In this document: positions 22,347 through 50,069 of the stretch, piece by piece | Layout: each line of letters begins with the position of its first letter | Numbering within the stretch: position 1 is the first letter of the stretch | Source: Escherichia coli | GTDB lineage: Bacteria; Pseudomonadota; Gammaproteobacteria; Enterobacterales; Enterobacteriaceae | Direction: 5' to 3' (one strand) | NCBI RefSeq assembly: GCF_011045215.1 | Contig: NZ_CP049201.1 | Length of the DNA stretch: 64,000 nt | Program-made: the position numbers and the translations under genes | Notes under the pieces: generated by a model | Told to the model about the DNA's origin: nothing | What the model saw: only the letters and a program-made list of their open reading frames with translations | The model's database searches: none

Positions 22347-24623
22347 ATGCTCAATCAAGAACTGGAACTCAGTTTAAATATGGCTTTCGCCAGAGCGCGC
22401 GAGCACCGTCATGAGTTTATGACCGTCGAGCACTTGTTACTGGCGCTGCTCAGTAACCCATCTGCCCGGGAGGCGCTGGAAGCGTGTTCTGTGGATTTGG
22501 TTGCGCTCCGTCAGGAACTGGAAGCCTTTATTGAACAAACCACACCCGTTCTGCCTGCCAGTGAAGAGGAGCGCGACACACAGCCGACGCTGAGTTTTCA
22601 GCGTGTACTGCAACGTGCGGTCTTCCATGTCCAGTCCTCCGGTCGCAATGAGGTTACCGGTGCAAACGTTCTGGTCGCTATCTTTAGCGAACAGGAGTCG
22701 CAGGCGGCATATCTGTTGCGTAAACATGAAGTCAGCCGTCTCGATGTGGTGAACTTTATCTCTCATGGCACGCGTAAAGACGAGCCGGCACAGTCTTCTG
22801 ATCCTGGCAGCCAGCCAAACAGCGAAGAACAAGCTGGTGGGGAGGAACGTATGGAGAATTTCACGACGAACCTGAATCAGCTTGCGCGCGTGGGCGGAAT
22901 CGACCCACTGATTGGTCGTGAGAAGGAGCTGGAGCGTGCTATTCAGGTTCTCTGCCGTCGCCGTAAAAACAACCCGCTGCTGGTGGGGGAATCTGGTGTC
23001 GGTAAAACCGCGATTGCAGAAGGTCTTGCCTGGCGAATTGTTCAGGGCGATGTGCCGGAAGTGATGGCTGACTGTACGATTTACTCTCTCGATATCGGTT
23101 CTCTGTTAGCGGGCACAAAATATCGCGGCGACTTTGAAAAACGTTTTAAAGCGTTGCTCAAGCAGCTGGAGCAGGACACTAACAGCATCCTGTTTATTGA
23201 TGAGATCCACACCATTATCGGTGCGGGTGCAGCGTCTGGTGGTCAGGTCGATGCGGCTAACCTAATCAAACCGTTGCTCTCCAGCGGTAAAATTCGCGTA
23301 ATTGGTTCGACAACCTATCAGGAGTTCAGCAACATTTTCGAGAAAGACCGTGCTCTGGCGCGTCGCTTCCAGAAAATTGATATTACTGAACCGTCGATCG
23401 AAGAAACTGTTCAAATCATCAATGGCCTGAAACCGAAGTATGAAGCGCACCACGACGTGCGTTATACCGCAAAAGCGGTGCGTGCGGCGGTAGAGCTGGC
23501 GGTGAAATACATTAACGATCGTCATCTGCCGGATAAAGCGATTGATGTTATCGACGAAGCGGGCGCTCGCGCACGCCTGATGCCGGTAAGCAAACGCAAG
23601 AAAACCGTAAATGTGGCGGATATTGAGTCCGTGGTGGCCCGTATTGCACGCATTCCAGAGAAGAGTGTTTCTCAGAGTGACCGCGATACCCTGAAAAACC
23701 TCGGCGATCGCCTGAAAATGCTGGTCTTCGGTCAGGATAAAGCTATTGAGGCGCTGACTGAAGCCATTAAGATGGCGCGTGCAGGTTTAGGTCACGAACA
23801 TAAACCGGTTGGTTCGTTCCTGTTTGCCGGCCCTACCGGGGTCGGGAAAACAGAGGTGACGGTACAGCTTTCGAAAGCTTTGGGCATTGAGCTTCTGCGC
23901 TTTGATATGTCCGAGTATATGGAACGCCATACCGTCAGCCGTCTGATTGGTGCGCCTCCGGGATACGTTGGTTTTGATCAGGGCGGTTTGCTGACTGATG
24001 CGGTCATCAAGCATCCACATGCGGTGCTGCTGCTGGACGAAATCGAGAAAGCGCACCCGGACGTGTTCAATATTCTGTTGCAGGTGATGGACAACGGTAC
24101 GCTGACCGATAACAACGGACGCAAAGCGGACTTCCGTAACGTGGTGCTGGTGATGACCACCAACGCCGGGGTACGTGAAACTGAGCGTAAATCCATTGGT
24201 CTTATCCACCAGGATAACAGCACCGATGCGATGGAAGAGATCAAGAAGATCTTTACACCGGAATTCCGTAACCGTCTCGACAACATTATCTGGTTCGATC
24301 ATCTGTCAACTGACGTGATCCATCAGGTGGTGGATAAATTCATCGTCGAGTTGCAGGTTCAGCTGGATCAGAAAGGTGTTTCTCTGGAAGTGAGCCAGGA
24401 AGCGCGTAACTGGCTGGCCGAGAAAGGTTACGACCGGGCAATGGGCGCACGTCCGATGGCGCGTGTCATCCAGGACAACCTGAAAAAACCGCTTGCCAAC
24501 GAACTGCTGTTTGGTTCGCTGGTGGACGGCGGTCAGGTCACCGTCGCGCTGGATAAAGAGAAAAATGAGCTGACTTACGGATTCCAGAGTGCACAAAAGC
24601 ACAAGGAGGAAGCAGCGCATTAA
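22347..24623 (+). CDS. clpA: ATP-dependent Clp protease ATP-binding subunit ClpA
   Basis: Two AAA+ modules (Walker A GESGVGKT and GPTGVGKT); 758 aa from [11 protein letters not shown]. Confidence 0.92.
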
Positions 24624-24647
24624 TCTGATTGTTAAGTAGGTTGGTGA

Positions 24648-24681
24648 AGTCCGTAATCTCGAAAGAGGTTACGGACTTTTT
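24648..24681 (+). terminator. Rho-independent terminator of clpA
   Basis: Hairpin agtccgtaa / ttacggact followed by TTTTT. Confidence 0.75.
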
Positions 24682-24836
24682 ATTTATGGGGTGGAGGAGG
24701 TTCAGACCCTTTTTTTGATGATGATGGTTAGTTGTTGATAATTAGTCCTGCTGGAAGGTAAGGATAAAAAAGGGTGGCAGCAGGAGAATGAGATGGTTTT
24801 GCTTTATTAACAACGGGCTAAACGTGTAGTATTTGA

Positions 24837-24984
24837 GTTCACTGCCGTACAGGCAGCTTAGAAAAATTGTCGGCGCATTTTCCCATTAGTTGCAAAGTTC
24901 ACTGCCGTACAGGCAGCTTAGAAATTCACAGGTAACATACTCCACCCGCCCACCATGTTCACTGCCGTACAGGTAGATAAAATG
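24837..24984 (+). CRISPR. Orphan type I-F-like CRISPR mini-array (3 repeats, 2 spacers)
   Basis: 28-bp repeat GTTCACTGCCGTACAGGCAGCTTAGAAA at 24837-24864 and 24897-24924; degenerate third copy at 24957-24984; two 32-bp spacers; AT-rich leader-like sequence upstream; no cas genes in window. Confidence 0.85.
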
Positions 24985-25041
24985 CGAAAAAAAAGCTCGT
25001 ACTTTCGTTCGAGCTCTTCTTTAAATATGGCGGTGAGGGGG
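24982..25041. repeat. att-like direct repeat copy 1 (tRNA-Ser 3' end plus terminator)
   Basis: 25028-25046 is the reverse complement of the last 19 nt of tRNA-Ser(GGA), preceded by hairpin plus A-run (a minus-strand terminator); the 60-bp unit recurs at 25161-25220. Confidence 0.7.
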
Positions 25042-25160
25042 GGATTGACTCGCTTCGCTCGCCCTGCGGGCAGCCCACTCACTGCGTTCGTGGTCTGTCC
25101 AACTGGCTGCGCCAGTTGTCGAACCCCGGTCGGGGCTTCTCACCCCCCCTGGAGTGCATT

Positions 25161-25220
25161 ATGCGAAAAAAAAGCTCGCACTTTCGTACGAGCTCTTCTT
25201 TAAATATGGCGGTGAGGGGG
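25161..25220. repeat. att-like direct repeat copy 2 (island left junction)
   Basis: Near-identical to 24982-25041 (2 mismatches); the tRNA-like match is shorter (about 14 nt); lies directly upstream of the integrase gene. Confidence 0.7.
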
Positions 25221-25380: not shown

Positions 25381-26583
25381 ATGGCAGTATTGACGGATAC
25401 GAAAGCAAGACATATCAAACCTGATGACAAACCATTGCCCCATGGGGGAATTACCGGACTGACCCTTCATCCTTCTTCAGTAAAGGGGCGGGGGAAATGG
25501 GTTTTTCGTTATGTAAGTCCGGTGACACAAAAAAGACGTAATGCTGGATTGGGAACTTACCCAGAGGTCAGTATTGCTGAAGCTGCACGTACTGCCCGGA
25601 TAATGCGAGAGCAACTTGCTGCAGGTGATGATCCTCTGGAGATTAAAAAGGCTGAATCTGAGAAAGTCGTTATCCCAACATTTGCCGATGCAGCCAGGCG
25701 TGTACATGCAGAACTGTCTCCTGGATGGGAAAATCCAAAGCATGTAAGGCAGTGGTTATCGACGCTTGAGAATTACGCGTTTCCTCAACTGGGAGCAAAA
25801 ACGCTGGATTCGATTACGGCTGCGGACGTGGCAGAAACATTGCGTCCAGTCTGGTTAACCTTGTCAGAAACGGCAAGCCGGGTTAAACAGCGCATTCATG
25901 TTGTTATGCAGTGGGGATGGGCGCACGGTTTTTGTGTGGCAAATCCTGTTGATGTGGTTGACCATTTGCTTCCTCAGCAGACAAGAGGACGTGATGAACA
26001 CCAACCCGCAATGCCCTGGAGGCAGTTACCGCTTTTTGTGGCGACCAGTGTGTATAGTGATGAACCTTATAATGTTACCCGCGCACTGTTATTAATGGTG
26101 ATACTTACAGCAACTCGCTCGGGCGAAGCCAGGGGAATGCGCTGGGCTGAAATTGATTTTCATAAGCGGGTATGGACTATACCTGCAGAAAGAATGAAAG
26201 CTAGGCTACAGCATCGTGTTCCTTTATCCCGGCAGGCTATTTACATTCTGGAAAATATACGTGGCCTGCATGATGAACTGGTGTTCCCTTCACCCAGAAA
26301 GCAGCAGATCCTTTCCGATATGGTGTTGACAAGTTTTCTGCGTAAAAAGAAAGCCGTCAGTGACATTCCGGGGCGAGTTGCCACGGCACATGGTTTTCGC
26401 TCAACATTCAGGGACTGGTGTAGTGAACAGGGGTATTCGCGGGATCTGGCGGAAAGGGCGCTCGCTCATACGCTGAAAAATAAGGTTGAGGCGGCATATC
26501 ATCGCACTGATCTACTGGAGCAGCGTGTACCGATGATGCAGGCATGGGCGGATTATGTGATGTCTCAAATTGTGAATAAATAA
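25381..26583 (+). CDS. Tyrosine recombinase, P4-type integrase family
   Basis: 400-aa ORF; N-terminal arm-binding-like region and C-terminal catalytic region (AHGFRSTFRDW...LAH...Y); adjacent to att repeat. Confidence 0.85.
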   Translation: MAVLTDTKARHIKPDDKPLPHGGITGLTLHPSSVKGRGKWVFRYVSPVTQKRRNAGLGTYPEVSIAEAARTARIMREQLAAGDDPLEIKKAESEKVVIPTFADAARRVHAELSPGWENPKHVRQWLSTLENYAFPQLGAKTLDSITAADVAETLRPVWLTLSETASRVKQRIHVVMQWGWAHGFCVANPVDVVDHLLPQQTRGRDEHQPAMPWRQLPLFVATSVYSDEPYNVTRALLLMVILTATRSGEARGMRWAEIDFHKRVWTIPAERMKARLQHRVPLSRQAIYILENIRGLHDELVFPSPRKQQILSDMVLTSFLRKKKAVSDIPGRVATAHGFRSTFRDWCSEQGYSRDLAERALAHTLKNKVEAAYHRTDLLEQRVPMMQAWADYVMSQIVNK

Positions 26584-36677: not shown

Positions 36678-37301
36678 ATGCGTACACGAATTGATTATCT
36701 GGTGAATAAATACTGTTTTACAGAACTGAATGAATCTCCACGTCTTCGTCGGCAGTGGCAGGATGTTCTGGATGAGTGCCGGCAGACAGGGGCCGGGCCA
36801 GAAGAACGGCTGCGTATTGCACTGCTGAATGTGGATTACGTCACCAGTTTTGAGCTGCCTTTTCGCTTGCTGCTTACCCGGACACCACAACTGATTGCCG
36901 CGCTGCGTGAAGAATGGGGCATCAGCCAGAAAAATGTGGTGTTCAACGATAAACGGTTTGGCTGCGTGTACAGCCTGAAGGCCAGCCTTTCGGGTGTGCC
37001 GGATACATTCCGGTATCATCTGTCTCACCGTATTCGTCGCGTGGTTGGGAATGAAAACACATCATTGCCATATCAGCAGGTTGCCCGGGAAGTGAAAGCG
37101 TCCCGTGAACGGCTGAAGTATGCGCTGGAAGCAGGTTTACTGGTGACCGCACTGGACGGGCTGTTCTGGTCTGGCAGTCAGCGTATTGCGGCTGATGTCC
37201 TGAGATTAAGACAGAGCGGAATGCCGGTAGTGACAACGAATGTGGAGGTGCACGATAACCTGACGGGAACAACCCGCAAAGTGCCGGCATACCATCTCTG
37301 A
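36678..37301 (+). CDS. Hypothetical 207-aa protein
   Basis: ORF with balanced composition; no recognised motif. Confidence 0.4.
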   Translation: MRTRIDYLVNKYCFTELNESPRLRRQWQDVLDECRQTGAGPEERLRIALLNVDYVTSFELPFRLLLTRTPQLIAALREEWGISQKNVVFNDKRFGCVYSLKASLSGVPDTFRYHLSHRIRRVVGNENTSLPYQQVAREVKASRERLKYALEAGLLVTALDGLFWSGSQRIAADVLRLRQSGMPVVTTNVEVHDNLTGTTRKVPAYHL

Positions 37302-38456: not shown

Positions 38457-40196
38457 TTGACTGGAAAATTATGTTGCAGGAACGAGAGGGCTGAGGAACA
38501 AAGCGTATTCCGGCGCTGTCCGTCCTTGCTGTCACTGACACTGATGTCTGTTTTATTATCGCCTTTATCTCTTCAGGCCGCGGATGTCCGGCGTAGCGGA
38601 GATAATGCATTTATCATTCAGCAGCAGCGTCAGGAAGCCCTTGAGCAACAACTGACGCCTTCAGCCCCTGATGTTCGCCTTTCTGCACCTGGCTCTTTTG
38701 CCCGTAAGATTAATTTTCCTGTTGAAACGCCCTGTTTTCAGATTAAACAGACGGAACTGGAGGGGGCTGATGCGTTACCACACTGGCTGCCTTTACAAAA
38801 AATCGCCAACGGGGCGGTCGGGCATTGCCTGGGGGCGAAAGGAATTAATCTGCTGATGAGTACATTGCAGAACCGTCTGGTCGATCATGGTTATGTCACC
38901 ACCCGTGTTCTGGCACCTTCGCAGGATTTAAAAAGCGGTATCCTCCGGCTGGTTGTTATTCCCGGTGTTGTGCGACATGTGCGTCTGACACCGGACAGTG
39001 ATGACTATATTCAGTTGTATTCCTCATTCCCGGCACACGAAGGTTCTCTGCTGGATTTACGGGACATTGAGCAGGGGCTGGAGAATATGCAACGACTGCC
39101 GGGTGTGCAGGCTGATATGGAAATTGTACCCGGTGAGCAGCCAGGGGAAAGTGACATTCTTATTACCCGCAAACAGGACAAATACTGGCGACTGGGGTTT
39201 TCGCTTGATGATTCAGGTACCCGCAGCACAGGGCGTTATCTCGGTGGTATAACATTTTCTCTGGATAATCCTTTTTCCCTGAGTGACCTGCTGTATGTTT
39301 CTGCCACCCGTAATTTTCCACATTACGGGGGTAAGGGCAGTAAAAACTACACGGCCCATTACTCTGTGCCTTTCGGCTACTGGCAGTTTTCCGTCACCGC
39401 CAGTGATTACGATTACCATCAGACGGTAGCTGGTGCGGTTGAGGATTACCAGTACAGTGGCGAGAGTCAGAATCTGGGTATGCAGCTGAGCCGGGTACTG
39501 CACCGTAACGGGACGCAGAAAACGGTGCTGACCTACGATGTTCAGGCCCGCAGGTCGCGTAACTACATTAATGATACGGAAATCCAGGTGCAGCGCCGGC
39601 AGACAGCGGCCTGGCGACTTGGGCTGCAGCACCGTCATTATATTTCTCAGGCCACACTGGATGCTGGTGTCAGCTGGCAACGGGGAACCCGCTGGTTTGG
39701 TGCACAGCCGGCGCCGGAAGAAACGTTCGGTGAGGCAACGGCGCTCAGTAAGATCCTGCAGTTGAATGCATCCTTTAATCTGCCCTTTACCCTTGCAGGG
39801 CAGCCCTTCAGTTATTCCTTCCGGTATCAGCGCCAGCTGAGCAATACCCCGCTGACCCCACAGGAACAGTTTGCCATCGGTAACCGCTGGACGGTTCGTG
39901 GTTTTGACGGGGAGCGAACGCTGAATGCCAGTAACGGCTGGTATATCCGCAACGACCTGGCCTGGCGTACGCCACTGCCGGAGCAGGAGTTATATCTGGG
40001 AATGGATTACGGCGAGGTGGGGGGAGCCGGCAGTGAATACCTGGTGGGACGTCATCTGGCTGGTGGTGTTGTGGGGCTGAGGGGGCAACTGTTCAGTACG
40101 GATTATGACGTTTTCATCGGTCGTCCGTTTTCAAAGCCGGCGGGTTTTATGACGAGTGATGTGACAGCCGGTTTTAATCTGTTCCGGGATTTCTGA
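38457..40196 (+). CDS. cdiB: Two-partner secretion outer-membrane transporter CdiB (TpsB family); start uncertain (TTG at 38457)
   Basis: Signal peptide ending [13 protein letters not shown]-like N-region, C-terminal beta-barrel ending in aromatic residue; directly upstream of cdiC-cdiA. Confidence 0.85.
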
Positions 40197-40205
40197 GAAA
40201 GTTTC

Positions 40206-40733
40206 ATGCGTAACGGGAAATATGACGTTCTGAGTCCCCTGTATTCCGGTGAGCCGGTCAATGAGGCGGAAGTCCTGGGGGCGGCCGTCTGGTTGTGGAT
40301 GCACTCCCCCCTGCATCGTGATGCGCCACTGCATACCCTGCCGGACCTGCTGCTGCCGGTGATTAAGCACCGACAGTATGTGGTGGCAACAGAGCAGGGG
40401 CGACCGGTTTTCTTCATGAGCCAGGCCTGGCTCAGCCCGGAGGCAGAGGCGCGTTATCTTACGCAGCCGGCAATTCTCATGCCTCAGTCGGACTGGAACA
40501 GCGGCGACCGGATGTGGGTCTGTGACTGGATTGCCCCTTTTGGACATACCCCGGATATGAGTCGTCTTGTCCGGCAGGATATTTTTCCCCGTCTGTGCTG
40601 GCGTTCGCTGTACCACCGTGGGCAGCAGACCGGGTTGCGGGTGATGAATTTCCGGGGTGCACAGGTCAGTCGTGAAGAGGCGCGCCAGTGGCGTGTGCAG
40701 CACCCGCTTGCTGTGGATGTGCCGGAGAGATAA
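40206..40733 (+). CDS. cdiC: HlyC/RTX-family toxin-activating lysine acyltransferase (CdiC-like)
   Basis: Motifs WLWMHSPLHRD and GDRMWVCDWIAPFG closely parallel HlyC (WLWASSPLHRN, GDRKWFIDWIAPFG); 175 aa. Confidence 0.8.
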   Translation: MRNGKYDVLSPLYSGEPVNEAEVLGAAVWLWMHSPLHRDAPLHTLPDLLLPVIKHRQYVVATEQGRPVFFMSQAWLSPEAEARYLTQPAILMPQSDWNSGDRMWVCDWIAPFGHTPDMSRLVRQDIFPRLCWRSLYHRGQQTGLRVMNFRGAQVSREEARQWRVQHPLAVDVPER

Positions 40734-40748
40734 GTCAGGTTTATCAGA

Positions 40749-43700
40749 ATGAACAAAAATTGTTACCGCATTATTTTTAACAAAGCCCGGGGAATGCTGA
40801 TGGTGGTGGCAGATATTGCCCGTTCCGGTCGCGCCGGTGCATCACCCTCCTCCCGTACAGGATATCCACGCAGGCAACGTATCTGCCGTGTCACATCGCT
40901 TGCATTCTCCCTGTGGCTGGCCTCGGGGATGGTGCATTCTGTCAGTGCTGCAGGCATTGTCGCAGACCATGGCGCACCGGGGCATCAGCAGCCCACGATT
41001 ACGCAGACAGCCAGCGGCATTCCTCAGGTCAATATCCAGACACCTTCTGCAGGTGGGGTATCGCACAATACTTACAGTCAGTTTGATGTCAGTCATCAGG
41101 GTGTCATTCTGAATAACTCGCATAAAAATGTGCAGACCCAACTGGGCGGCATGGTTGCCGGTAACCCGTGGCTGGCGAAGGGAGAGGCCCGAATCATTCT
41201 TAATGAAGTGAACAGTCGCAATCCCAGCCAGTTGAACGGTTTTGTTGAGGTTGCCGGGAAAAAGGCGCAGGTGGTGATTGCGAACCCGGCCGGCATCAGT
41301 TGCGACGGGTGCGGTTTTATTAATGCGAACCGGGCCACGCTGACCACGGGGCAGCCTCAGATGAAAAACGGCAGTCTGACCGGATTCAGTGTTGAACGTG
41401 GTGAGATTCAGATTACGGGCAAAGGGATGGATGCCTCGCGCACGGATTATACCGATATCATTGCCCGGTCTGTGAAGATTAATGCGGGTATCTGGGCGCA
41501 GGACCTGAAAGTGACCACCGGACGTAACAATGTGGATATTGCACACGGGCAGACTGAGAAAAAAGCCGCTGATGCCTCTTCGCAGCCACAGGTGGCGCTG
41601 GATGTGTCCAGCCTTGGTGGAATGTATGCCGGAAAAATTCGCCTTGTCGGTACGGAAACGGGGGTGGGTGTTCGTAACGCCGGTCATATTGGTGCGCAGG
41701 CAGGGGCGGTTACCCTGACGGCTGACGGACGAATTGAAAACAGTGGCAGTATCAGTGCGAAAACGGATGTGCATCTGGTGACAACCCGGGAGCTGCATAA
41801 CAGTGGTTCTGTTTATGCGGGGCAGGATACGCAGATACAGAGTGATGGTGTATTCACCCATACAGGCTCTGTGGCATCACGTCGCAACACCCGGATTCAG
41901 ACAGCGCGTCTGACCGGCGGTGAGCGGAGTCTGCTGGCCGCCGGGGTGAAAGATGACGGACGTCTGGCGGCAGCGGGCAACCTGACTGTCAGTACCACCG
42001 GCGAACTGGCGGCACACGGACAGGTTCTGTCCGGTGGGGACATGCAACTGAAGGGGCAGGGGCTGGATTTAAGCAACAGCCGGATACAGGGACAACATAC
42101 TGAGCTGGATGCAGGCAGCGGAAATCTGTTCACGCAAAATGCGCAACTGAGTGCCGGTACGCTTTCCGCCCGGACTGCCGGGCAGTTCAGCAATAATGAC
42201 GGCACGATAAATGCCGACACACTGCAGATATCAGCACAGAGCCTGTCAAACCACAGGGGTAAACTGATTCAGACGGGAACAGGGGATTTTTCACTGAACC
42301 TGCCGGGAGGTGTGGATAACCGGGAAGGGCTGCTTGCGGCAAATGGCGCGGTGCGCCTGGATGCACTGAGCCTTGATAATCGCAGGGGGAAAGTGCAGGC
42401 GGCGCAGTCAGGTAGTCTGCAGGTGAGGACAACCGGCGCCGTGGATAACCAGCAGGGAAGTCTGATTGCCAGCCGTGACATCCTGATTAATACACAGGCA
42501 CTGAATAACGACAACGGACTGATTTCAGCTGCTGCCGGAACGGGCAGGATAAAAACACAGCAGGCTGTCAGCAATACTGAGGGACGAATGGAGTCCGCCG
42601 GCAGGCTGGATATTTCGGCAGGGAGTCTGAATAACCACCAGGGTACGGTGGTGTCTGACGGGCTGTCCGTGACGCTGGATGGTGCGCTGGATAATACGTC
42701 CGGCAGACTGCTTTCACAGAAAACGCTGTCTGTGTCAGGCAGCGAACTGGTCTCTGATGATGGTCTGATTCAGTCCGGCAGTGACATGACGCTGGATGTA
42801 CAGGACGGGGTTCTCAGTAACCGGAACACGAAAACACGGGGTGGTATCAGCAGCGCCGGTACCCTGACAGTACGGGCCGGTATGCTGAATAACCAGCAGG
42901 GATTTATGGCGGGTCAGAAGGATATGACCCTGAACGCCGGAACGCTCGATAACCGTCAGGGCGTGCTGGGGAGTCAGGCGTCATTACAGATATCGTCAGG
43001 TACGCTGATGAACCAGAAAGGCGCACTGAAGGCCGGGACGGATATGTTGCTGAGTGGTGGCGATGTCAGTAATCAGGAAGGGACGCTTGCCGCCGGCGGG
43101 GACCTGAATGCGCACCTGAATGTGCTGGAAAATCAGCAGGGGACGGTGGTCAGCAACGGTAACAGCAGGCTGGATGTCACCCGCTCTGATAATCAGGGCG
43201 GCAGACTGGTGGCACAGCAGTCACTGACCCTTTCCTCGACGGATATCAGCAATGATGCAGGTGGTCTGATACAGAGCGGTGCCACACTGAATCTCCGTGC
43301 TGACACACTGAGCAACCGTAACAGTGGTGACCGGGGCGGGGTTATCAGTCAGGGCCCGATGACGCTGAATGCCGGCACACTGGACAGCACTGCCGGTGTG
43401 CTTTTGTCGGGAGATGCGCTGTCCCTGACTGCAGGCGTGGTTAACAATACATCCGGTCAGGTGGTGGCGAATGGTCAGATTGTGGCGACCGGTCTGCCCG
43501 GCCGGAACAGTCTGGCGCTGAACAATCAGTCCGGTCTTATTCAGGGGAAAGGCATCAGCATTAATAGCGCAGGCCGGACGCTGGATAACAGAGGGGGTAC
43601 GCTGAACAGCCTGCAGGAACTGACTGTCAGTACCGGAGCAATGGATAACCGGGGCGGGACCGTGGGGGCGAAAACGACAGCTGACCTGAGCACCACCTCG

Positions 43701-46700
43701 CTGGATAACCGTGAGGGTGGCCGGCTGGTCAGTGAAGGTGAACTCCGTCTGCATACGGGAGGCCTGCAGAACAGCCACGGACAGATACAGTCTGTGGGCG
43801 ACATTCTGTTCGACAGTGTACGGGGCGTTGTGGACAACGTCTCTGGTCTGATTCGCAGTGGTTCTGCCATTACGCTGAACGCCCTGCAGTTTATCAATCG
43901 CCACACGCAGAATACCGGCCAGGGGCTGGAAGCGCAGACAATACACATCACGACGCAGGACCTTGATAACCAGGAGGGCAGTATTCTGGCAGACAGGGCG
44001 CTTACGGTTATGGCAGACAGGACGCTCAGTAATAATGATGGCGTGCTCTCTTCCGGCGCGACATTGTCTGTCAGTGGCCGTCAGCTGGCGTTTTCGAACC
44101 GTGACGGCGTGGTTAAGGCCGGGCAGTCAGTCTCTGTGGATGTCGGTCAGCTTGGTGGTGACGGGAAACTGCTTTCGCCGGGCGATATAACGCTGAAAAG
44201 TAACACAGCGTTCAGTAACAGTGGTCAGACCATTGCAAACGGAAACCTTACGCTTTCCGTTAATGGCGATGTCTCTAATACCGGCAGCCTGCTGGCAGGC
44301 AGCCGGCTTGACCTGAACAGCATCCGCCTTGAAAACACAGAGAAAGGTGAAATCAGTGCCGGGCAGACCTGGCTTAACGTGACGGACACACTGCTGAACC
44401 GTGGGCTGATTGACGGGAAATATACGCATCTTCAGGCGAACACCCTGACGAATTCCGGTACCGGGCGAATCTACGGCGATGCTGTTGGTGTCAGCGCTGC
44501 CACATTTAATAATCTGGATGAAAATGGCGTGGCGGCGACGCTGGCCGGACGTGAGCGTGTGGACCTGGGGGTACAGACCCTGAATAACCGGACGCACAGC
44601 CTGATTTACAGTGCAGGTGATATGCATATCGGTGGCATGCTGGATGCGAATGGCGCCGCCACGGGGAAAGCCGGTGTACTGAATAATCACAGTGCCACGA
44701 TTGAAGCCGCCGGTTCCCTGACACTGAGTGCCGGGCAAATCAATAACGTCAATGACCATTTCACCACGGAGCGCGTGGTGGTCTCCACGGAAAAGGTGAC
44801 TGAGTATCAGCATCGCGGGTCAGATGTCCGCTGGAATGCAAAAGATGAGGGGGTGTTCATTGATAACAACTCCTCTGATGGACTGCTGAACCTGAACACG
44901 CCGGATGATACCGGACATAACAACGACCGGTTCACAAAATATGAATACACCCGTACCGTGGAGGAAACCCGGGTAAAAGACTCCGACCCGGGGAAAATAC
45001 TGTCCGGTGCCGGCATGACGGTTGTGGCAGACAAACTGCTTAATGACAAGAGCCAGGTGGTTGCAGGTGGTCTGCTGGATATGCAGGCCGGTGATGTGGA
45101 AAACGTCAGTGTCAGCGGAGAGCGCCATGTTACTGATAAAGGGACATCCACATATTATTACCGGATAAAAAGAAAAAATAAAAATGACAGGCAGGGGGAA
45201 AGAATTTCCCCTTACGAGCCGCCCCCCGTCATTCAGACCATCACGCTGAAGCCGGGAGAGCTCACCAGCCACGGACAGGTTCAGGGCAGCCAGGTCACGC
45301 TTTCTCCCCTGAAGCCACAGGGAACGGATGTACAGACAGGACTGACCGGAAATGTGGATGCGACAGTAGCCGTTACTGACCGGATACCGCTTCGCCCGGT
45401 GGTGTCAGCCGGTGAACCGGTCATTCTGTTGCCGGGGCAGCAGTTTGAAGTCAGCGCACCTCAGGGCAGTATCCATGTTGCCGGGCCGGATACCCGTCTG
45501 CCGGACAGCAGCCTGTTTAAAACAAATCCGGCAGTGAATGTGCCATATCTGGTTGAAACGGACCCGCGTTTTACGAACCAGAAGACGTGGCTGGGCAGTG
45601 ATTACATGCAGAAGGCGTTTTCTCAGAACGGGGATAACATGCTCAAACGCCTGGGGGATGGTTTTTACGAACAGCGTCTGATTCGTGAGCAGGTTGTCGC
45701 TCTGACCGGGCAACGGTACCTGGACGGATACAGTAATGATGAAGAGCAGTTTAAGGCGTTAATGGATGCGGGTATTGCATTTGGTAAGCAATACAACCTG
45801 ACACCAGGTGTGGCGCTGACTGCTGAGCAGATGGCGTTACTGACCGGTGATATTGTCTGGCTGGTTAACACCACGGTGACACTGCCGGACGGCAGCACGC
45901 AGACGGTTCAGGTACCTCAGGTGTATGCCCGTGTAAAACCCGGTGATGTGAACAGTGCCGGTGCGCTGATTGCCGGCAGGGACATGGTGATGAAGCTGGA
46001 TGGTGACCTGTTTAACAGCGGTAAACTGGCCGGGAAGCAGGCCGTGCAGCTCAGTGCAGAAAACATTCACAACCAGGCCGGCACCATTCAGGGAGCAAAT
46101 GTCAGCCTGACGGCCCGGACGGATATTAACAGTACCGGCGGGCTGCTGCAGGCCACGGACAGCCTGCTGGCGATGGCCGGACGGGATATCAGTCTGACCA
46201 CCACCACCCGTACGGCACAGCGCGACGCCGGGCAGAACCATTTTGAACGTACCAGTATCGACAGTGTGGCCGGCGTGTATGTGCAGAACGACCAGGGAAG
46301 ACTGGTGCTGCAGGCCGGACGGGATATGAATCTGACGGCGGCAACGGTGGTGAATCAGGGTAAGGACAGCCTGACACAACTCAGTGCCGGCAGGGATATG
46401 ACGCTTTCCACGGTGACCACATCCGCGCAGGACAATATTACCTGGGATAAAAATAATCGTCTGTCGCAGGGCGTCACACAGAATACGGGCAGCACACTTG
46501 CCGGTAACGGTGATGTCACGCTGACCGCCGGACGGGATATGACGTCACAGGCGGCATCGCTGTCAGCTCAGAAAGGCCTGGCCCTGATGGCGGGTCATGA
46601 CGTGACGCTGACCGGTGCACAGAATACCCGCTCGCTGGATGAATACCATAAAGTGACCGGCAACAGCGGGATGTTATCGAAAACCACCACTACCACGCAT

Positions 46701-49700
46701 GATGTCACTGACCGCCGGACCATGACGGGCAGTGAACTGAACGGGGATACGGTCAGTATCGGTGCCGGACATAATCTGAACGTCACGGGCAGCAGTGTGG
46801 CCGGGGATAACCGTGTCTCCCTGGCTGCCGGAAATAACCTGAGTATCGGAACGCTGACAGAAAGCAACCGTGAAACACACCTGAAACAGGAGAAAAAATC
46901 CGGACTGATGAGCTCCGGAGGTGTGGGATTCAGCGTGGGCAGCCAGAGTCTGAAGGTCACGGACACCGCAACAGACACCACGCAGAAAGGCAGCACGGTG
47001 GGGAGTGTTCACGGTGATGTTTCCCTTCAGGCAGGTAACCGGTTGACCGTCAACGGCTCTGACCTGATTGCCGGCAGGGACATGGCACTCAGTGGTAAGG
47101 AGGTCAGCATTACCGCCGCCACTGACCGGCATGTGCAGACACATACGGTGGAGCAGAAAACCTCCGGTCTGACGCTTGCCCTGTCCGGCACAGCGGGCAG
47201 CGCCCTGAACACGACGGTGGAGACCGTACAGGCGGCGAAATCTGCCGGAAACAGCCGGCTTGAAGCCCTGCAGGGGGTGAAGGCCGCGCTCTCGGGGGCT
47301 CAGGCCGTGCAGGCCGGACGACTGGCAGAAGCACAGGGCAACCAGAAAGAGAATAACAATACCGTGGGTATCAGCCTCTCTTACGGCAGCCAGTCTTCGA
47401 AATCAGAACAGCAGTCAGAGCAGACGGTGGCGAAGGGCAGTACACTGACCGCAGGTAATAACCTCAGTATTCAGGCCACCGGCTCCGGCGTGAAGGGCGT
47501 GGATGGTGACCTGACGATACAGGGCGGTCAGATAAAGGCCGGGAACAACGTTCTGCTGCAGGCAAACCGTGACGTGAATCTGGTATCAGCAGAAAACACG
47601 TCAAAGCTGGAAGGAAAGAACACATCCAGTGGTGGCAGCGTGGGTGTCGGTATCGGTGTGGGGCCCGGAGGGCCTGGTTTCAGTCTGTCAGCCAGCGCAA
47701 ACCAGGGTAAGGGCAGTGAAAAAGGCAACGGTACCACCCATACAGAAACCACGGTGGATGCGGGAAACCGGCTGACCATTATCAGCGGGCGGGACACCAC
47801 GCTTACCGGCGCGCAGGCTGGCGGTGAAACGGTGAAAGTGGATGCCGGTCGTCATCTGACACTGACCAGTGAGCAGGACAGTGACCGTTATGACAGTAAG
47901 CAGCAGAATGCCAGCGCCGGAGGCAGCTTCACTTTCGGGTCCATGAGCGGTTCGGCGAGTGTGAACCTCAGCCGGGATAAAATGCACAGTAACTACGACA
48001 GTGTACAGGAGCAGACGGGGATTTTTGCCGGCAGGGGCGGGTTTGATGTCACCACCGGACAGCATACGCAACTGAACGGTGCGGTGATTGCGTCCACGGC
48101 AACGGCAGATAAAAACAGGCTGGATACCGGCACACTGGGCTTCAGTGACACTGAAAACCGGGCTGACTTTAAAACGGAACATCAGAGTGCAGGGCTCAGT
48201 ACCGGTGGCAGTGTTGCCGGAAATTTCCTGGGGAACATGGCAAACAATCTGCTGGTCGGTGCAAATCATGAAGGCCATGCGGACAGTACCACGCAGTCGG
48301 CTGTGTCTGCCGGGAATATCACTATCCGGGATACACAGAGCCAGAAACAGGATGTGGCAGACCTGAACCGTGACGTTGCGCATGCAAACCAGACGCTGTC
48401 CCCCATCTTTGACAGGGAAAAAGAGCAGCAGCGGTTGCAGCAGGCGCAACTCATTGGTGAGATTGGTAACCAGGTGGCAGATATTGCCAGAACGGAAGGA
48501 CAGATAGCCGGTGAGAAAGCGAAGCGGGACCCGGCAGCACTGAATCAGGCCCGCGCAGAGCTTGAGGCAGCAGGAAAACCGTACACGGAACAGGATGTGG
48601 CACAGCGGGCCTACAATAACGGTATGGCAGCCTCCGGTTTTGGAACGGGAGGCAAATACCAGCAGGCGATACAGGCCGCAACGGCAGCGGTACAGGGACT
48701 GGCCGGCGGTAATCTGAGTGCAGCCCTGGCAGGTGGTGCAGCGCCGTATATTGCTGAAATTATCAAACAGACCACCCCGGACGGTGCGGGGCGTGTGGCA
48801 GCTCATGCAGTAGTGAATGCCGCCCTGTCTCTGGCACAGGGTAAGAATGCCCTTGCCGGTGCTGCAGGTGCAGCCACCGGCGAGGTGGTGGGAATGATAG
48901 CCACACAGATATACGATAAATCGGTGAGTGAACTGAGTGAGACAGAGAAACAGACGGTCTCCACGCTGGCAACGGTTGCTGCCGGCCTGGCCGGTGGTCT
49001 GGTGGGAGACTCGGGGGCTTCAGCGGTAGCCGGCGCACAGTCAGGTAAGACGACTGTTGAGAATAATTATCTTAGCGTGTCTGAAAAGACAGAGCTTGAG
49101 ATAGCAAAACAGAAGCTTAAAAACAGTAAAGATCCGGCAGAGCGTGAAAAGGCACAGCAGAAATATGATGCATTGCTTGAAAAAGATATCAGCAGTGATA
49201 AGGCAGTAATCGCTGCGTGCAGTAACGGACAGGCAGCCAGCGCAGCTTGTGCCGGTGAAAGACTGAAGGTTATTGCAGCTAAAGGAGGTTATGAAACCGG
49301 ACACTACAATAACCAAGTCAGCGATATGTATCCGGATGCTTACGGGCAGATAGTAAACCTGCTGAATATCACCAGTGTTGATGCACAAAATCAACAACAG
49401 GTGAAGGATGCGATGGTGAACTATGCCATGGTGCAGTTTGGGGTCGATAGGGCGACGGCACAGGCATACGTTGAAACTTATGATGGAATGAAAGTTGTAG
49501 CTGCTTCGATGGCACCAGTAATAGGTGCTGCGGCGGCCAGTAAGATAGAAGTTCTGGCTGGTAAACAACGCTTGTCTAATAGTTTCGAGGTTAGCTCACT
49601 TCCAGATGCAAATGGGAAAAATCACATCACGGCTGTAAAAGGTGATGCTAAAATACCTGTCGATAAGATTGAACTATATATGCGTGGTAAAGCTTCTGGT

Positions 49701-50069
49701 GACCTTGATTCTTTGCAAGCAGAATATAATTCTTTAAAAGATGCAAGGATTAGCAGCCAAAAAGAATTTGCAAAAGATCCAAACAATGCTAAAAGGATGG
49801 AAGTATTAGAAAAACAAATCCATAATATTGAGCGTTCTCAAGATATGGCTCGTGTATTAGAACAAGCAGGTATAGTGAATACTGCCAGTAATAACAGCAT
49901 GATAATGGATAAGTTATTGGACTCAGCTCAGGGGGCTACGTCTGCAAATAGAAAAACATCTGTTGTTGTATCAGGGCCTAACGGTAACGTAAGGATTTAT
50001 GCTACATGGACAATATTACCTGATGGCACGAAAAGACTTTCAACTGTTAATACGGGGACATTCAAATGA
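40749..50069 (+). CDS. cdiA: Contact-dependent inhibition exoprotein CdiA (3106 aa) with VENN-delimited C-terminal toxin
   Basis: Extended signal peptide MNKNCYRIIFNKARGMLMVVADIA, TPS domain (ANPAGISCDGCGF), long FHA-type repeat tracts, VENN at 49056-49067, AT-rich C-terminal 333 aa. Confidence 0.9.
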   Translation: MNKNCYRIIFNKARGMLMVVADIARSGRAGASPSSRTGYPRRQRICRVTSLAFSLWLASGMVHSVSAAGIVADHGAPGHQQPTITQTASGIPQVNIQTPSAGGVSHNTYSQFDVSHQGVILNNSHKNVQTQLGGMVAGNPWLAKGEARIILNEVNSRNPSQLNGFVEVAGKKAQVVIANPAGISCDGCGFINANRATLTTGQPQMKNGSLTGFSVERGEIQITGKGMDASRTDYTDIIARSVKINAGIWAQDLKVTTGRNNVDIAHGQTEKKAADASSQPQVALDVSSLGGMYAGKIRLVGTETGVGVRNAGHIGAQAGAVTLTADGRIENSGSISAKTDVHLVTTRELHNSGSVYAGQDTQIQSDGVFTHTGSVASRRNTRIQTARLTGGERSLLAAGVKDDGRLAAAGNLTVSTTGELAAHGQVLSGGDMQLKGQGLDLSNSRIQGQHTELDAGSGNLFTQNAQLSAGTLSARTAGQFSNNDGTINADTLQISAQSLSNHRGKLIQTGTGDFSLNLPGGVDNREGLLAANGAVRLDALSLDNRRGKVQAAQSGSLQVRTTGAVDNQQGSLIASRDILINTQALNNDNGLISAAAGTGRIKTQQAVSNTEGRMESAGRLDISAGSLNNHQGTVVSDGLSVTLDGALDNTSGRLLSQKTLSVSGSELVSDDGLIQSGSDMTLDVQDGVLSNRNTKTRGGISSAGTLTVRAGMLNNQQGFMAGQKDMTLNAGTLDNRQGVLGSQASLQISSGTLMNQKGALKAGTDMLLSGGDVSNQEGTLAAGGDLNAHLNVLENQQGTVVSNGNSRLDVTRSDNQGGRLVAQQSLTLSSTDISNDAGGLIQSGATLNLRADTLSNRNSGDRGGVISQGPMTLNAGTLDSTAGVLLSGDALSLTAGVVNNTSGQVVANGQIVATGLPGRNSLALNNQSGLIQGKGISINSAGRTLDNRGGTLNSLQELTVSTGAMDNRGGTVGAKTTADLSTTSLDNREGGRLVSEGELRLHTGGLQNSHGQIQSVGDILFDSVRGVVDNVSGLIRSGSAITLNALQFINRHTQNTGQGLEAQTIHITTQDLDNQEGSILADRALTVMADRTLSNNDGVLSSGATLSVSGRQLAFSNRDGVVKAGQSVSVDVGQLGGDGKLLSPGDITLKSNTAFSNSGQTIANGNLTLSVNGDVSNTGSLLAGSRLDLNSIRLENTEKGEISAGQTWLNVTDTLLNRGLIDGKYTHLQANTLTNSGTGRIYGDAVGVSAATFNNLDENGVAATLAGRERVDLGVQTLNNRTHSLIYSAGDMHIGGMLDANGAATGKAGVLNNHSATIEAAGSLTLSAGQINNVNDHFTTERVVVSTEKVTEYQHRGSDVRWNAKDEGVFIDNNSSDGLLNLNTPDDTGHNNDRFTKYEYTRTVEETRVKDSDPGKILSGAGMTVVADKLLNDKSQVVAGGLLDMQAGDVENVSVSGERHVTDKGTSTYYYRIKRKNKNDRQGERISPYEPPPVIQTITLKPGELTSHGQVQGSQVTLSPLKPQGTDVQTGLTGNVDATVAVTDRIPLRPVVSAGEPVILLPGQQFEVSAPQGSIHVAGPDTRLPDSSLFKTNPAVNVPYLVETDPRFTNQKTWLGSDYMQKAFSQNGDNMLKRLGDGFYEQRLIREQVVALTGQRYLDGYSNDEEQFKALMDAGIAFGKQYNLTPGVALTAEQMALLTGDIVWLVNTTVTLPDGSTQTVQVPQVYARVKPGDVNSAGALIAGRDMVMKLDGDLFNSGKLAGKQAVQLSAENIHNQAGTIQGANVSLTARTDINSTGGLLQATDSLLAMAGRDISLTTTTRTAQRDAGQNHFERTSIDSVAGVYVQNDQGRLVLQAGRDMNLTAATVVNQGKDSLTQLSAGRDMTLSTVTTSAQDNITWDKNNRLSQGVTQNTGSTLAGNGDVTLTAGRDMTSQAASLSAQKGLALMAGHDVTLTGAQNTRSLDEYHKVTGNSGMLSKTTTTTHDVTDRRTMTGSELNGDTVSIGAGHNLNVTGSSVAGDNRVSLAAGNNLSIGTLTESNRETHLKQEKKSGLMSSGGVGFSVGSQSLKVTDTATDTTQKGSTVGSVHGDVSLQAGNRLTVNGSDLIAGRDMALSGKEVSITAATDRHVQTHTVEQKTSGLTLALSGTAGSALNTTVETVQAAKSAGNSRLEALQGVKAALSGAQAVQAGRLAEAQGNQKENNNTVGISLSYGSQSSKSEQQSEQTVAKGSTLTAGNNLSIQATGSGVKGVDGDLTIQGGQIKAGNNVLLQANRDVNLVSAENTSKLEGKNTSSGGSVGVGIGVGPGGPGFSLSASANQGKGSEKGNGTTHTETTVDAGNRLTIISGRDTTLTGAQAGGETVKVDAGRHLTLTSEQDSDRYDSKQQNASAGGSFTFGSMSGSASVNLSRDKMHSNYDSVQEQTGIFAGRGGFDVTTGQHTQLNGAVIASTATADKNRLDTGTLGFSDTENRADFKTEHQSAGLSTGGSVAGNFLGNMANNLLVGANHEGHADSTTQSAVSAGNITIRDTQSQKQDVADLNRDVAHANQTLSPIFDREKEQQRLQQAQLIGEIGNQVADIARTEGQIAGEKAKRDPAALNQARAELEAAGKPYTEQDVAQRAYNNGMAASGFGTGGKYQQAIQAATAAVQGLAGGNLSAALAGGAAPYIAEIIKQTTPDGAGRVAAHAVVNAALSLAQGKNALAGAAGAATGEVVGMIATQIYDKSVSELSETEKQTVSTLATVAAGLAGGLVGDSGASAVAGAQSGKTTVENNYLSVSEKTELEIAKQKLKNSKDPAEREKAQQKYDALLEKDISSDKAVIAACSNGQAASAACAGERLKVIAAKGGYETGHYNNQVSDMYPDAYGQIVNLLNITSVDAQNQQQVKDAMVNYAMVQFGVDRATAQAYVETYDGMKVVAASMAPVIGAAAASKIEVLAGKQRLSNSFEVSSLPDANGKNHITAVKGDAKIPVDKIELYMRGKASGDLDSLQAEYNSLKDARISSQKEFAKDPNNAKRMEVLEKQIHNIERSQDMARVLEQAGIVNTASNNSMIMDKLLDSAQGATSANRKTSVVVSGPNGNVRIYATWTILPDGTKRLSTVNTGTFK

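Follow-up and report, generated by a model that had tools for sequence, protein, structure and literature searches.

The array at positions 24837 to 24984 of the 64,000-nt stretch of Escherichia coli DNA analysed here (the window) is an orphan type I-F CRISPR array of an already known kind, termed CRISPR4.1-2 by the Mojica group and CRISPR3 by Touchon and Rocha, and carried by most E. coli strains, K-12 included. In what we consider to be, taken as a whole, the best and a very probable explanation, it is the residue of a clpA-side I-F array left once cas1, cas2-3, csy1-3 and cas6f had been lost. By analogy with orphan arrays studied experimentally, it would in all likelihood act as a dormant guide store, the cell being vaccinated against re-acquiring a type I-F system by way of the anti-cas1 spacer. 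The locus is a textbook case of a CRISPR array turned on its own cas genes.

Anatomy of the array and its genomic surroundings

Two perfect 28-bp repeats and one degenerate copy enclose two 32-bp spacers, as a preliminary description of this DNA had claimed. Both a repeat finder and direct reading of the window place the repeat starts at 24837, 24897 and 24957, at intervals of 60 and 60 nt, and the two spacers, each of 32 nt, are unrelated to one another in sequence. The assignment of the repeat to type I-F, also made beforehand, was borne out by the family model, since R1 and R2 each match Rfam RF01317 (CRISPR-DR4) at 50.1 bits (gathering score, 35), and R3 falls below this threshold at 22.1 bits. 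The repeat had no match in 100 dinucleotide-preserving shuffles of the window. R3 differs from R1 and R2 at 6 of its 28 positions: the first 17 bases are retained and are followed by the divergent tail GGTAGATAAAATG. The fold of R1 is a hairpin of the Cas6f type with a 5-bp stem and a 5-nt loop (-8.6 kcal/mol). R3 folds into the same hairpin by means of a G-U pair (-6.6 kcal/mol, compared with -1.4 kcal/mol for the K-12-type terminal repeat), and its 3' handle has diverged. The locus therefore has the features of a type I-F array, i.e. a repeat that matches the family model and carries a hairpin, unique spacers of ~32 nt at regular spacing, and a leader rich in A/T with a degenerate repeat opposite to it.

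Table 1 Features of the array, its flanks and the adjoining island in the window.
Feature	Positions	Strand	Remarks
clpA	22347..24623	+	upstream core gene; start inferred from the 2277-nt length of the PGAP gene
CRISPR4.1 leader	24624..24836	+	A/T-rich; 213 nt between clpA and R1
clpA intrinsic terminator	24646..24679	+	hairpin and T-run, 15-pair stem; also inverted repeat I2
candidate sigma-70 promoter in leader	24715..24742	+	TTGATG, 16 nt, GATAAT; 9/12 consensus matches
repeat 1 (R1)	24837..24864	+	perfect I-F repeat, GTTCACTGCCGTACAGGCAGCTTAGAAA; Rfam CRISPR-DR4, 50.1 bits
spacer 1 (S1)	24865..24896	+	32 nt, AATTGTCGGCGCATTTTCCCATTAGTTGCAAA; leader-proximal
repeat 2 (R2)	24897..24924	+	perfect I-F repeat, same as R1; CRISPR-DR4, 50.1 bits
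spacer 2 (S2)	24925..24956	+	32 nt, TTCACAGGTAACATACTCCACCCGCCCACCAT; conserved anti-cas1f spacer
repeat 3 (R3)	24957..24984	+	degenerate terminal repeat, GTTCACTGCCGTACAGGTAGATAAAATG; CRISPR-DR4, 22.1 bits
serW terminator copy 1 and tRNA-Ser 3'-end-like sequence	24982..25041	-	direct repeat D1; TGGCGGTGAGGGGGGGATT on + strand
RtT-like repeat unit, 136 nt	25028..25163	-	Rfam RF00391, 46.3 bits (cut-off 45)
serW terminator copy 2 and last 14 nt of serW	25161..25220	-	direct repeat D1; att core at right end
island tyrosine integrase	25381..26583	+	NCBIfam integrase domain, E = 9e-55
ECs1377-family protein	36678-37301		island
possible two-partner-secretion transporter	38457-40196		island; no NCBIfam match
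3106-aa ORF	40749-50069		island

The array lies, as had been described, on the clpA side and just downstream of clpA, which at the nucleotide level shares 99.3% identity with its counterpart in E. coli 700462 and 98.4% with that in LF82; PGAP annotates clpA at the corresponding place in the comparison loci L002, L004 and L010. This location is that of CRISPR4.1-2, with clpA ending at 24623, the array starting at 24837 and remnants of the serW terminator beyond it. Over its 213 nt, the leader shares 92.5% identity with the interval between clpA and the first CRISPR4.1 repeat of LF82, and in a five-strain alignment its final ~100 nt are nearly invariant. Given this homology to the LF82 CRISPR4.1 leader, the array is predicted to be read on the + strand, so that the leader, next to clpA, precedes the repeats and the degenerate copy comes last, as is usual. 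The candidate promoter within the leader is a weak prediction: a scan of the 900-nt region gave 2 sites of this grade, compared with 1.2 expected by chance.

The window was described beforehand as free of I-F cas genes, and this proved correct. When six LF82 Cas-F proteins were compared with the 64-kb window by tblastn, only chance matches were obtained (E >= 0.28), with the sole exception of spacer 2, which aligns to residues 33-43 of Cas1f. No complete type I-F system, with cas1f, cas2-3f, csy1, csy2, csy3 and cas6f adjoining one another, is present within the window.

Comparison of window 24957-24984 with L004 1533-1560 and L013 533-560 shows that the terminal repeat has at least three variants. 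In the GGCAG variant of UTME-7 and CEC03102 the hairpin stem is intact, in the GGTAG variant of the window it is held through the G-U pair, and in the GACAG variant of the K-12 type it is broken. These variants may lead to lineage-dependent 3' processing of the spacer-2 crRNA. Together with the first terminator copy, the terminal repeat of the window forms a private variant (top genome match, 97.4% over 106 nt) that is one step away from the UTME-7 type, consistent with natural divergence in a poorly sampled lineage.

On its distal side, the array had been said to abut the att site of the genomic island directly. This placement was off by 236 nt, which is the distance from R3 to the island junction (~25220; island DNA from ~25221) and is taken up by an RtT-like unit of 179 nt and copies of the serW terminator. 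The first terminator copy aligns to the 3' flank of serW in K-12 and carries a 19-nt remnant of the serW 3' end. The second runs on into intact serW in K99B; the window and 700462 diverge to island DNA past TGGCGGTGAGGGGG. PGAP labels the RtT-like element "RtT sRNA, processed from tyrT transcript" in L002, L005 and L010, although the site is downstream of serW. The number of RtT-like units downstream of serW is 0 in K-12, 1 in K99B and 5, in tandem, in CT01. As the unit adjoins intact serW in K99B and stands in five tandem copies in CT01, it belongs to the serW flank and not to the island. The 60-nt direct repeat around the unit was considered as attL and attR of the island and rejected, because it represents one period of a 179-nt tandem unit that is present in 0-5 copies in island-free strains.

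The island (window 25207-64000) is integrated at the 3' end of serW. In L002 and L011, a tyrosine-type recombinase/integrase is annotated by PGAP at the corresponding position right behind the junction. In the region of the 38457-50069 ORFs, annotations of related islands show ShlB/FhaC and hemagglutinin/polymorphic-toxin genes; the island of the window also has IS66, IS21 and IS4 transposases. ARAGORN found no tRNA in the window, so serW must lie past the far end of the island, and since both serW and infA are outside the window, the island is larger than 38 kb. Some related serW islands encode zorABCD (type I Zorya, L011), but a Zorya system was rejected for the window, where no ORFs of matching size are present.

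Spacer 2 and the anti-cas content of orphan arrays

The preliminary description proposed comparing both spacers with cas genes, phages and plasmids. The comparison yielded a cas gene for spacer 2 and no match for spacer 1. Spacer 2 matches LF82 cas1f at 30 of 32 positions, antisense to codons 33-43 and with a 5' CC flank. In the CRISPR-4 system of E. coli, the PAM has been defined as a GG that adjoins the protospacer on its leader-proximal side (PMC3506596). This GG reads as CC on the spacer-sense strand, and the flank of the spacer-2 protospacer is thus an I-F PAM. At least one spacer that matches an I-F cas gene next to a proper PAM is expected of a CRISPR4.1-2 array, and spacer 2 is such a spacer.

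Spacer 2 was covered to at least 80% in 2,567 of 5,426 complete E. coli genomes, and identical copies were found among the strains listed, including K-12 and REL606. The search also returned 258 records at 90-95% identity, and three of the four listed from this band are cas1f genes of I-F-positive strains (LF82, GN02100 and MINF_1D). The two mismatches to LF82 cas1f are at spacer positions 4 and 6. In Csy complexes, position 4 of the spacer falls inside the I-F seed. Direct interference with this extant cas1f allele may be weak because of the seed mismatch, and priming may be the dominant response to LF82-type cas1f. In UTME-7 and CEC03102, the spacer is replaced by the variant TTCACTGG, which matches at 31/32 and has the same Ser codon class as cas1f; as this variant is closer to cas1f, the A that the window and K-12 copies carry at position 6 represents drift within the array. 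OkiPb01680 (L012 473-620) has two tandem copies of the anti-cas1f spacer (R-S2-R-S2-R'), which reflect a repeat-mediated duplication and no fresh acquisition.

For comparison, we selected 13 cas-less strains spread over the range of BLAST scores (K-12, 700462, CT01, S1-ZIM-01-A, Z226-6, LH09-a, K99B, OkiPb01680, UTME-7, TUM13881, GZEC065, CEC03102 and strain 103). Their orphan arrays contain 1-3 spacers apiece and 8 distinct spacers overall, all of which match LF82 cas1f, cas3f or csy3 at 29/32 or better, with CC preceding 7 of the 8. Spacer 1 is the sole non-cas spacer among the orphan arrays compared (the window and the 13 strains), and an anti-cas3 spacer occupies its slot in K99B, LH09-a and CT01. 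This widespread anti-cas3 spacer, TCGACGGGGTGCGGTAAAACCTTTGCGAACGC (L010 5566-5597, L008 1740-1771, L015 541-572), encodes the Walker A motif of Cas3f, STGCGKTFAN, and its target is therefore among the least mutable parts of cas3f.

Annotation of these loci is uneven. In S1-ZIM-01-A (L006 1618-2016), a PGAP "hypothetical protein" on the minus strand, WP_012602745.1, spans the three-spacer array, and this ORF is almost certainly spurious. Arrays of one or two spacers, that of K-12 included, are without any CRISPR annotation.

Diez-Villasenor et al. (2010) reportedly proposed that anti-cas spacers were the cause of cas gene loss. In the same year, Touchon and Rocha reported that almost all non-B2 strains of E. 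coli carry a cas-less array with spacers matching cas1, cas3 and csy2 of the Ypest type (I-F), and proposed an anti-CRISPR role for it (PMC2886076). The single cas-less cassette was named CRISPR4.1-2 by Almendros et al. in 2014 (PMC3903273). A later study by the same first author (Almendros et al. 2016, Nat Microbiol 1:16081), as summarized in PMC8616872 and PMC5972030, two reviews by that group, reported that native orphan arrays are constitutively expressed, interfere with plasmids bearing the full cas-F set and trigger primed acquisition. The statement of the preliminary description that cas-less I-F arrays on the clpA side can carry anti-cas spacers is borne out by these summaries and by PMC2886076. 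In later reviews, the "vast majority" of the spacers in orphan arrays are said to match cas-F (PMC5972030), a wording that already acknowledges a minority of non-cas spacers. The I-F system of LF82 is active, and the complete system of LF82/UTI89 is constitutively so (PMC3506596).

Spacer 1, a leader-proximal spacer outside the anti-cas pattern

For spacer 1, blastn searches with E values up to 10 gave nothing meaningful in the 5,426 complete E. coli genomes, in PLSDB or in INPHARED. Its absence from the 5,426 genomes indicates that the version of the array present in the source genome is not in that collection. Pattern scans of the GTDB species genomes, IMG/VR and JGI metagenomes with an N-tolerant 27-mer and with a 22-mer (positions 11-32) returned zero matches; such scans need an exact match at the specified positions, and diverged protospacers can escape them.

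Several candidate targets were considered and rejected. As an anti-cas spacer, spacer 1 reached at best 18/32 with the LF82 cas-F genes, which is the chance level, and 20/32 over the whole 24-kb LF82 locus. As a control, the functional UTI89 array was scored in the same way against the LF82 cas-F genes, and its eight spacers gave similar values of 18-19/32 and no cas match. At the peptide level, spacer 1 scored at most 24 (BLOSUM62) with the six Cas-F proteins, a value reached by 55 of 300 shuffles. An 18-nt match to an AAA-ATPase gene of a P2-like prophage in three environmental E. coli is a chance match, with 20/32 identity over the full length, a TT instead of a CC flank and E = 6. Self-targeting inside the window was rejected for either spacer, the best off-array match being 20/32. 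Spacer 1 thus has no cas-F match such as is expected of an orphan-array spacer, an expectation that the later literature treats as a soft one (PMC5972030).

The ATPase gene with the 18-nt match encodes a 645-aa AAA-family protein in MB07081 (L003 3312-5249) and two more environmental strains. It occupies an accessory slot of the P2-like prophage, between the portal and replication genes, and may be a phage-borne defence gene.

Because spacer 1 is leader-proximal, it was added after spacer 2, showing that the array took a spacer after gaining the anti-cas1 spacer. Being younger than spacer 2, it needed Cas1 and Cas2-3 in trans for its insertion, and the lineage was presumably already without these proteins at that time. 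Spacer 1 is most likely the leftover of an encounter with cas-F, taken from the vector, or an import by recombination. Possible origins include capture during an aborted invasion, recombination from an unsampled I-F-positive array, and survival of a spacer gained just before cas loss. We put forward the first of these origins tentatively, as somewhat less likely than not: an element carrying cas-F would have entered an ancestor that had the orphan array, spacer 2 would have primed the incoming Cas1-Cas2-3, and the vector, before its destruction, would have yielded a spacer from its backbone. Spacer 1 would then be the natural fossil of an I-F invasion that was aborted. Compatible with such an event are the leader-proximal position of spacer 1, its origin outside the E. 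coli chromosomes, plasmids and phages of the databases, and its uniqueness to this lineage. If true, the fossil would provide field evidence for primed acquisition, so far a laboratory-only observation, and orphan arrays could keep a record of vehicles, otherwise unknown, by which I-F systems pass between enterobacteria. The source of spacer 1, if identified, could point to a vehicle carrying I-F systems.

Proposed function, alternatives and known systems

The mechanism proposed for the array takes transcription, processing, interference and priming from the analogy with native orphan arrays. The array would be transcribed from its conserved leader, constitutively according to the literature, and the transcript alone would have no effect. 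Once an operon of cognate I-F cas genes arrived on a mobile element, its Cas6f would cleave the pre-crRNA at the repeat hairpins, with CUUAGAAA as the expected 5' handle after processing, and the spacer-2 crRNA would be loaded by the incoming Csy complex. The loaded complex would then locate the CC-flanked protospacer in the incoming cas1f and recruit Cas2-3, with the result that the cas-carrying DNA would either be destroyed or give rise, by primed acquisition, to more spacers against itself. An orphan anti-cas array of this type would help to explain why most E. coli are without I-F and open to plasmid uptake. A point against an anti-cas function is that spacer 1 lies wholly outside the anti-cas pattern.

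We consider it unlikely that the array is instead an inert relic, i.e. the decaying remnant of a lost I-F system that has no present function and is kept between the essential neighbours clpA and serW/infA. Decay would account for the degenerate terminal repeat and for the lack of cas genes in the window, and it is also in line with the seed mismatch of spacer 2 to extant cas1f and with the lineage drift seen in spacer 2 (TTCACAGG vs TTCACTGG) and in the terminal repeat (GGTAG vs GACAG vs GGCAG). Nevertheless, two of the repeats are perfect and anti-cas spacers are retained in all sampled orphan arrays, a pattern that is hard to square with neutral decay, which would leave random spacers; the same argument was made by Touchon and Rocha (PMC2886076). 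Interference by native arrays has also been reported from experiments, as summarized in PMC8616872.

The perfect repeats, when taken together with the non-cas spacer 1, would also suit a source of guides in trans for some other machinery compatible with I-F, for instance an I-F3 CRISPR-associated transposon or an I-F system of a phage or plasmid, which spacer 1 would direct to its target; CRISPR-associated transposons are reported to be able to co-opt host defence arrays (PMC11300857). This role is very improbable given that tnsABC/tniQ and csy genes are absent from the window (tblastn with the Csy proteins was negative), that the island ORFs are those of an integrase, IS elements and two-partner-secretion genes, and that spacer 1 has no target in the E. 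coli genomes, plasmids and phages searched. We give hardly any credence to a Cas-independent small RNA or cis element acting, for example, on termination or expression of clpA or serW. The array does have the clpA terminator on one side and the convergent terminator of serW on the other, and its fold as a whole is somewhat better than that of shuffles (z = -2.1), but clpA and serW each have their own terminator outside the array, strains differ in spacer number (1 to 3) while the flanks remain unchanged, and neither spacer matches elsewhere in the window. A dormant store of guides against incoming I-F systems therefore remains our preferred explanation for the array.

Among known systems, CRISPR4.1 of LF82/UTI89 has the same repeat, a leader 92.5% identical to that of the window and the same position adjoining clpA. 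It differs in having 8-10 spacers on the clpA side and an adjoining cas1f-cas3f-csy1-3-cas6f operon, whereas the window has two spacers, one of them targeting I-F, and no cas genes. The mini-arrays and solitary repeat units of viruses and mobile elements (PMC8616872) are likewise very short, without adjoining cas genes and dependent on Cas proteins in trans; unlike the array of the window, they reside on mobile elements and are aimed at competitors or at the host. With the CRISPR4.1-2 orphan array, the window shares the locus, the leader, the 28-nt repeat, an oldest spacer identical to the anti-cas1f spacer of K-12, the absence of cas-F genes (within 64 kb in the window) and a degenerate terminal repeat ending in ATAAAATG. 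It departs from the known examples in its leader-proximal non-cas spacer 1, in the private GGTAG terminal repeat that retains a hairpin, and in the island that displaces serW. In summary, the array is nothing new in kind, and its sole new item is the extra, unmatched spacer next to the leader.
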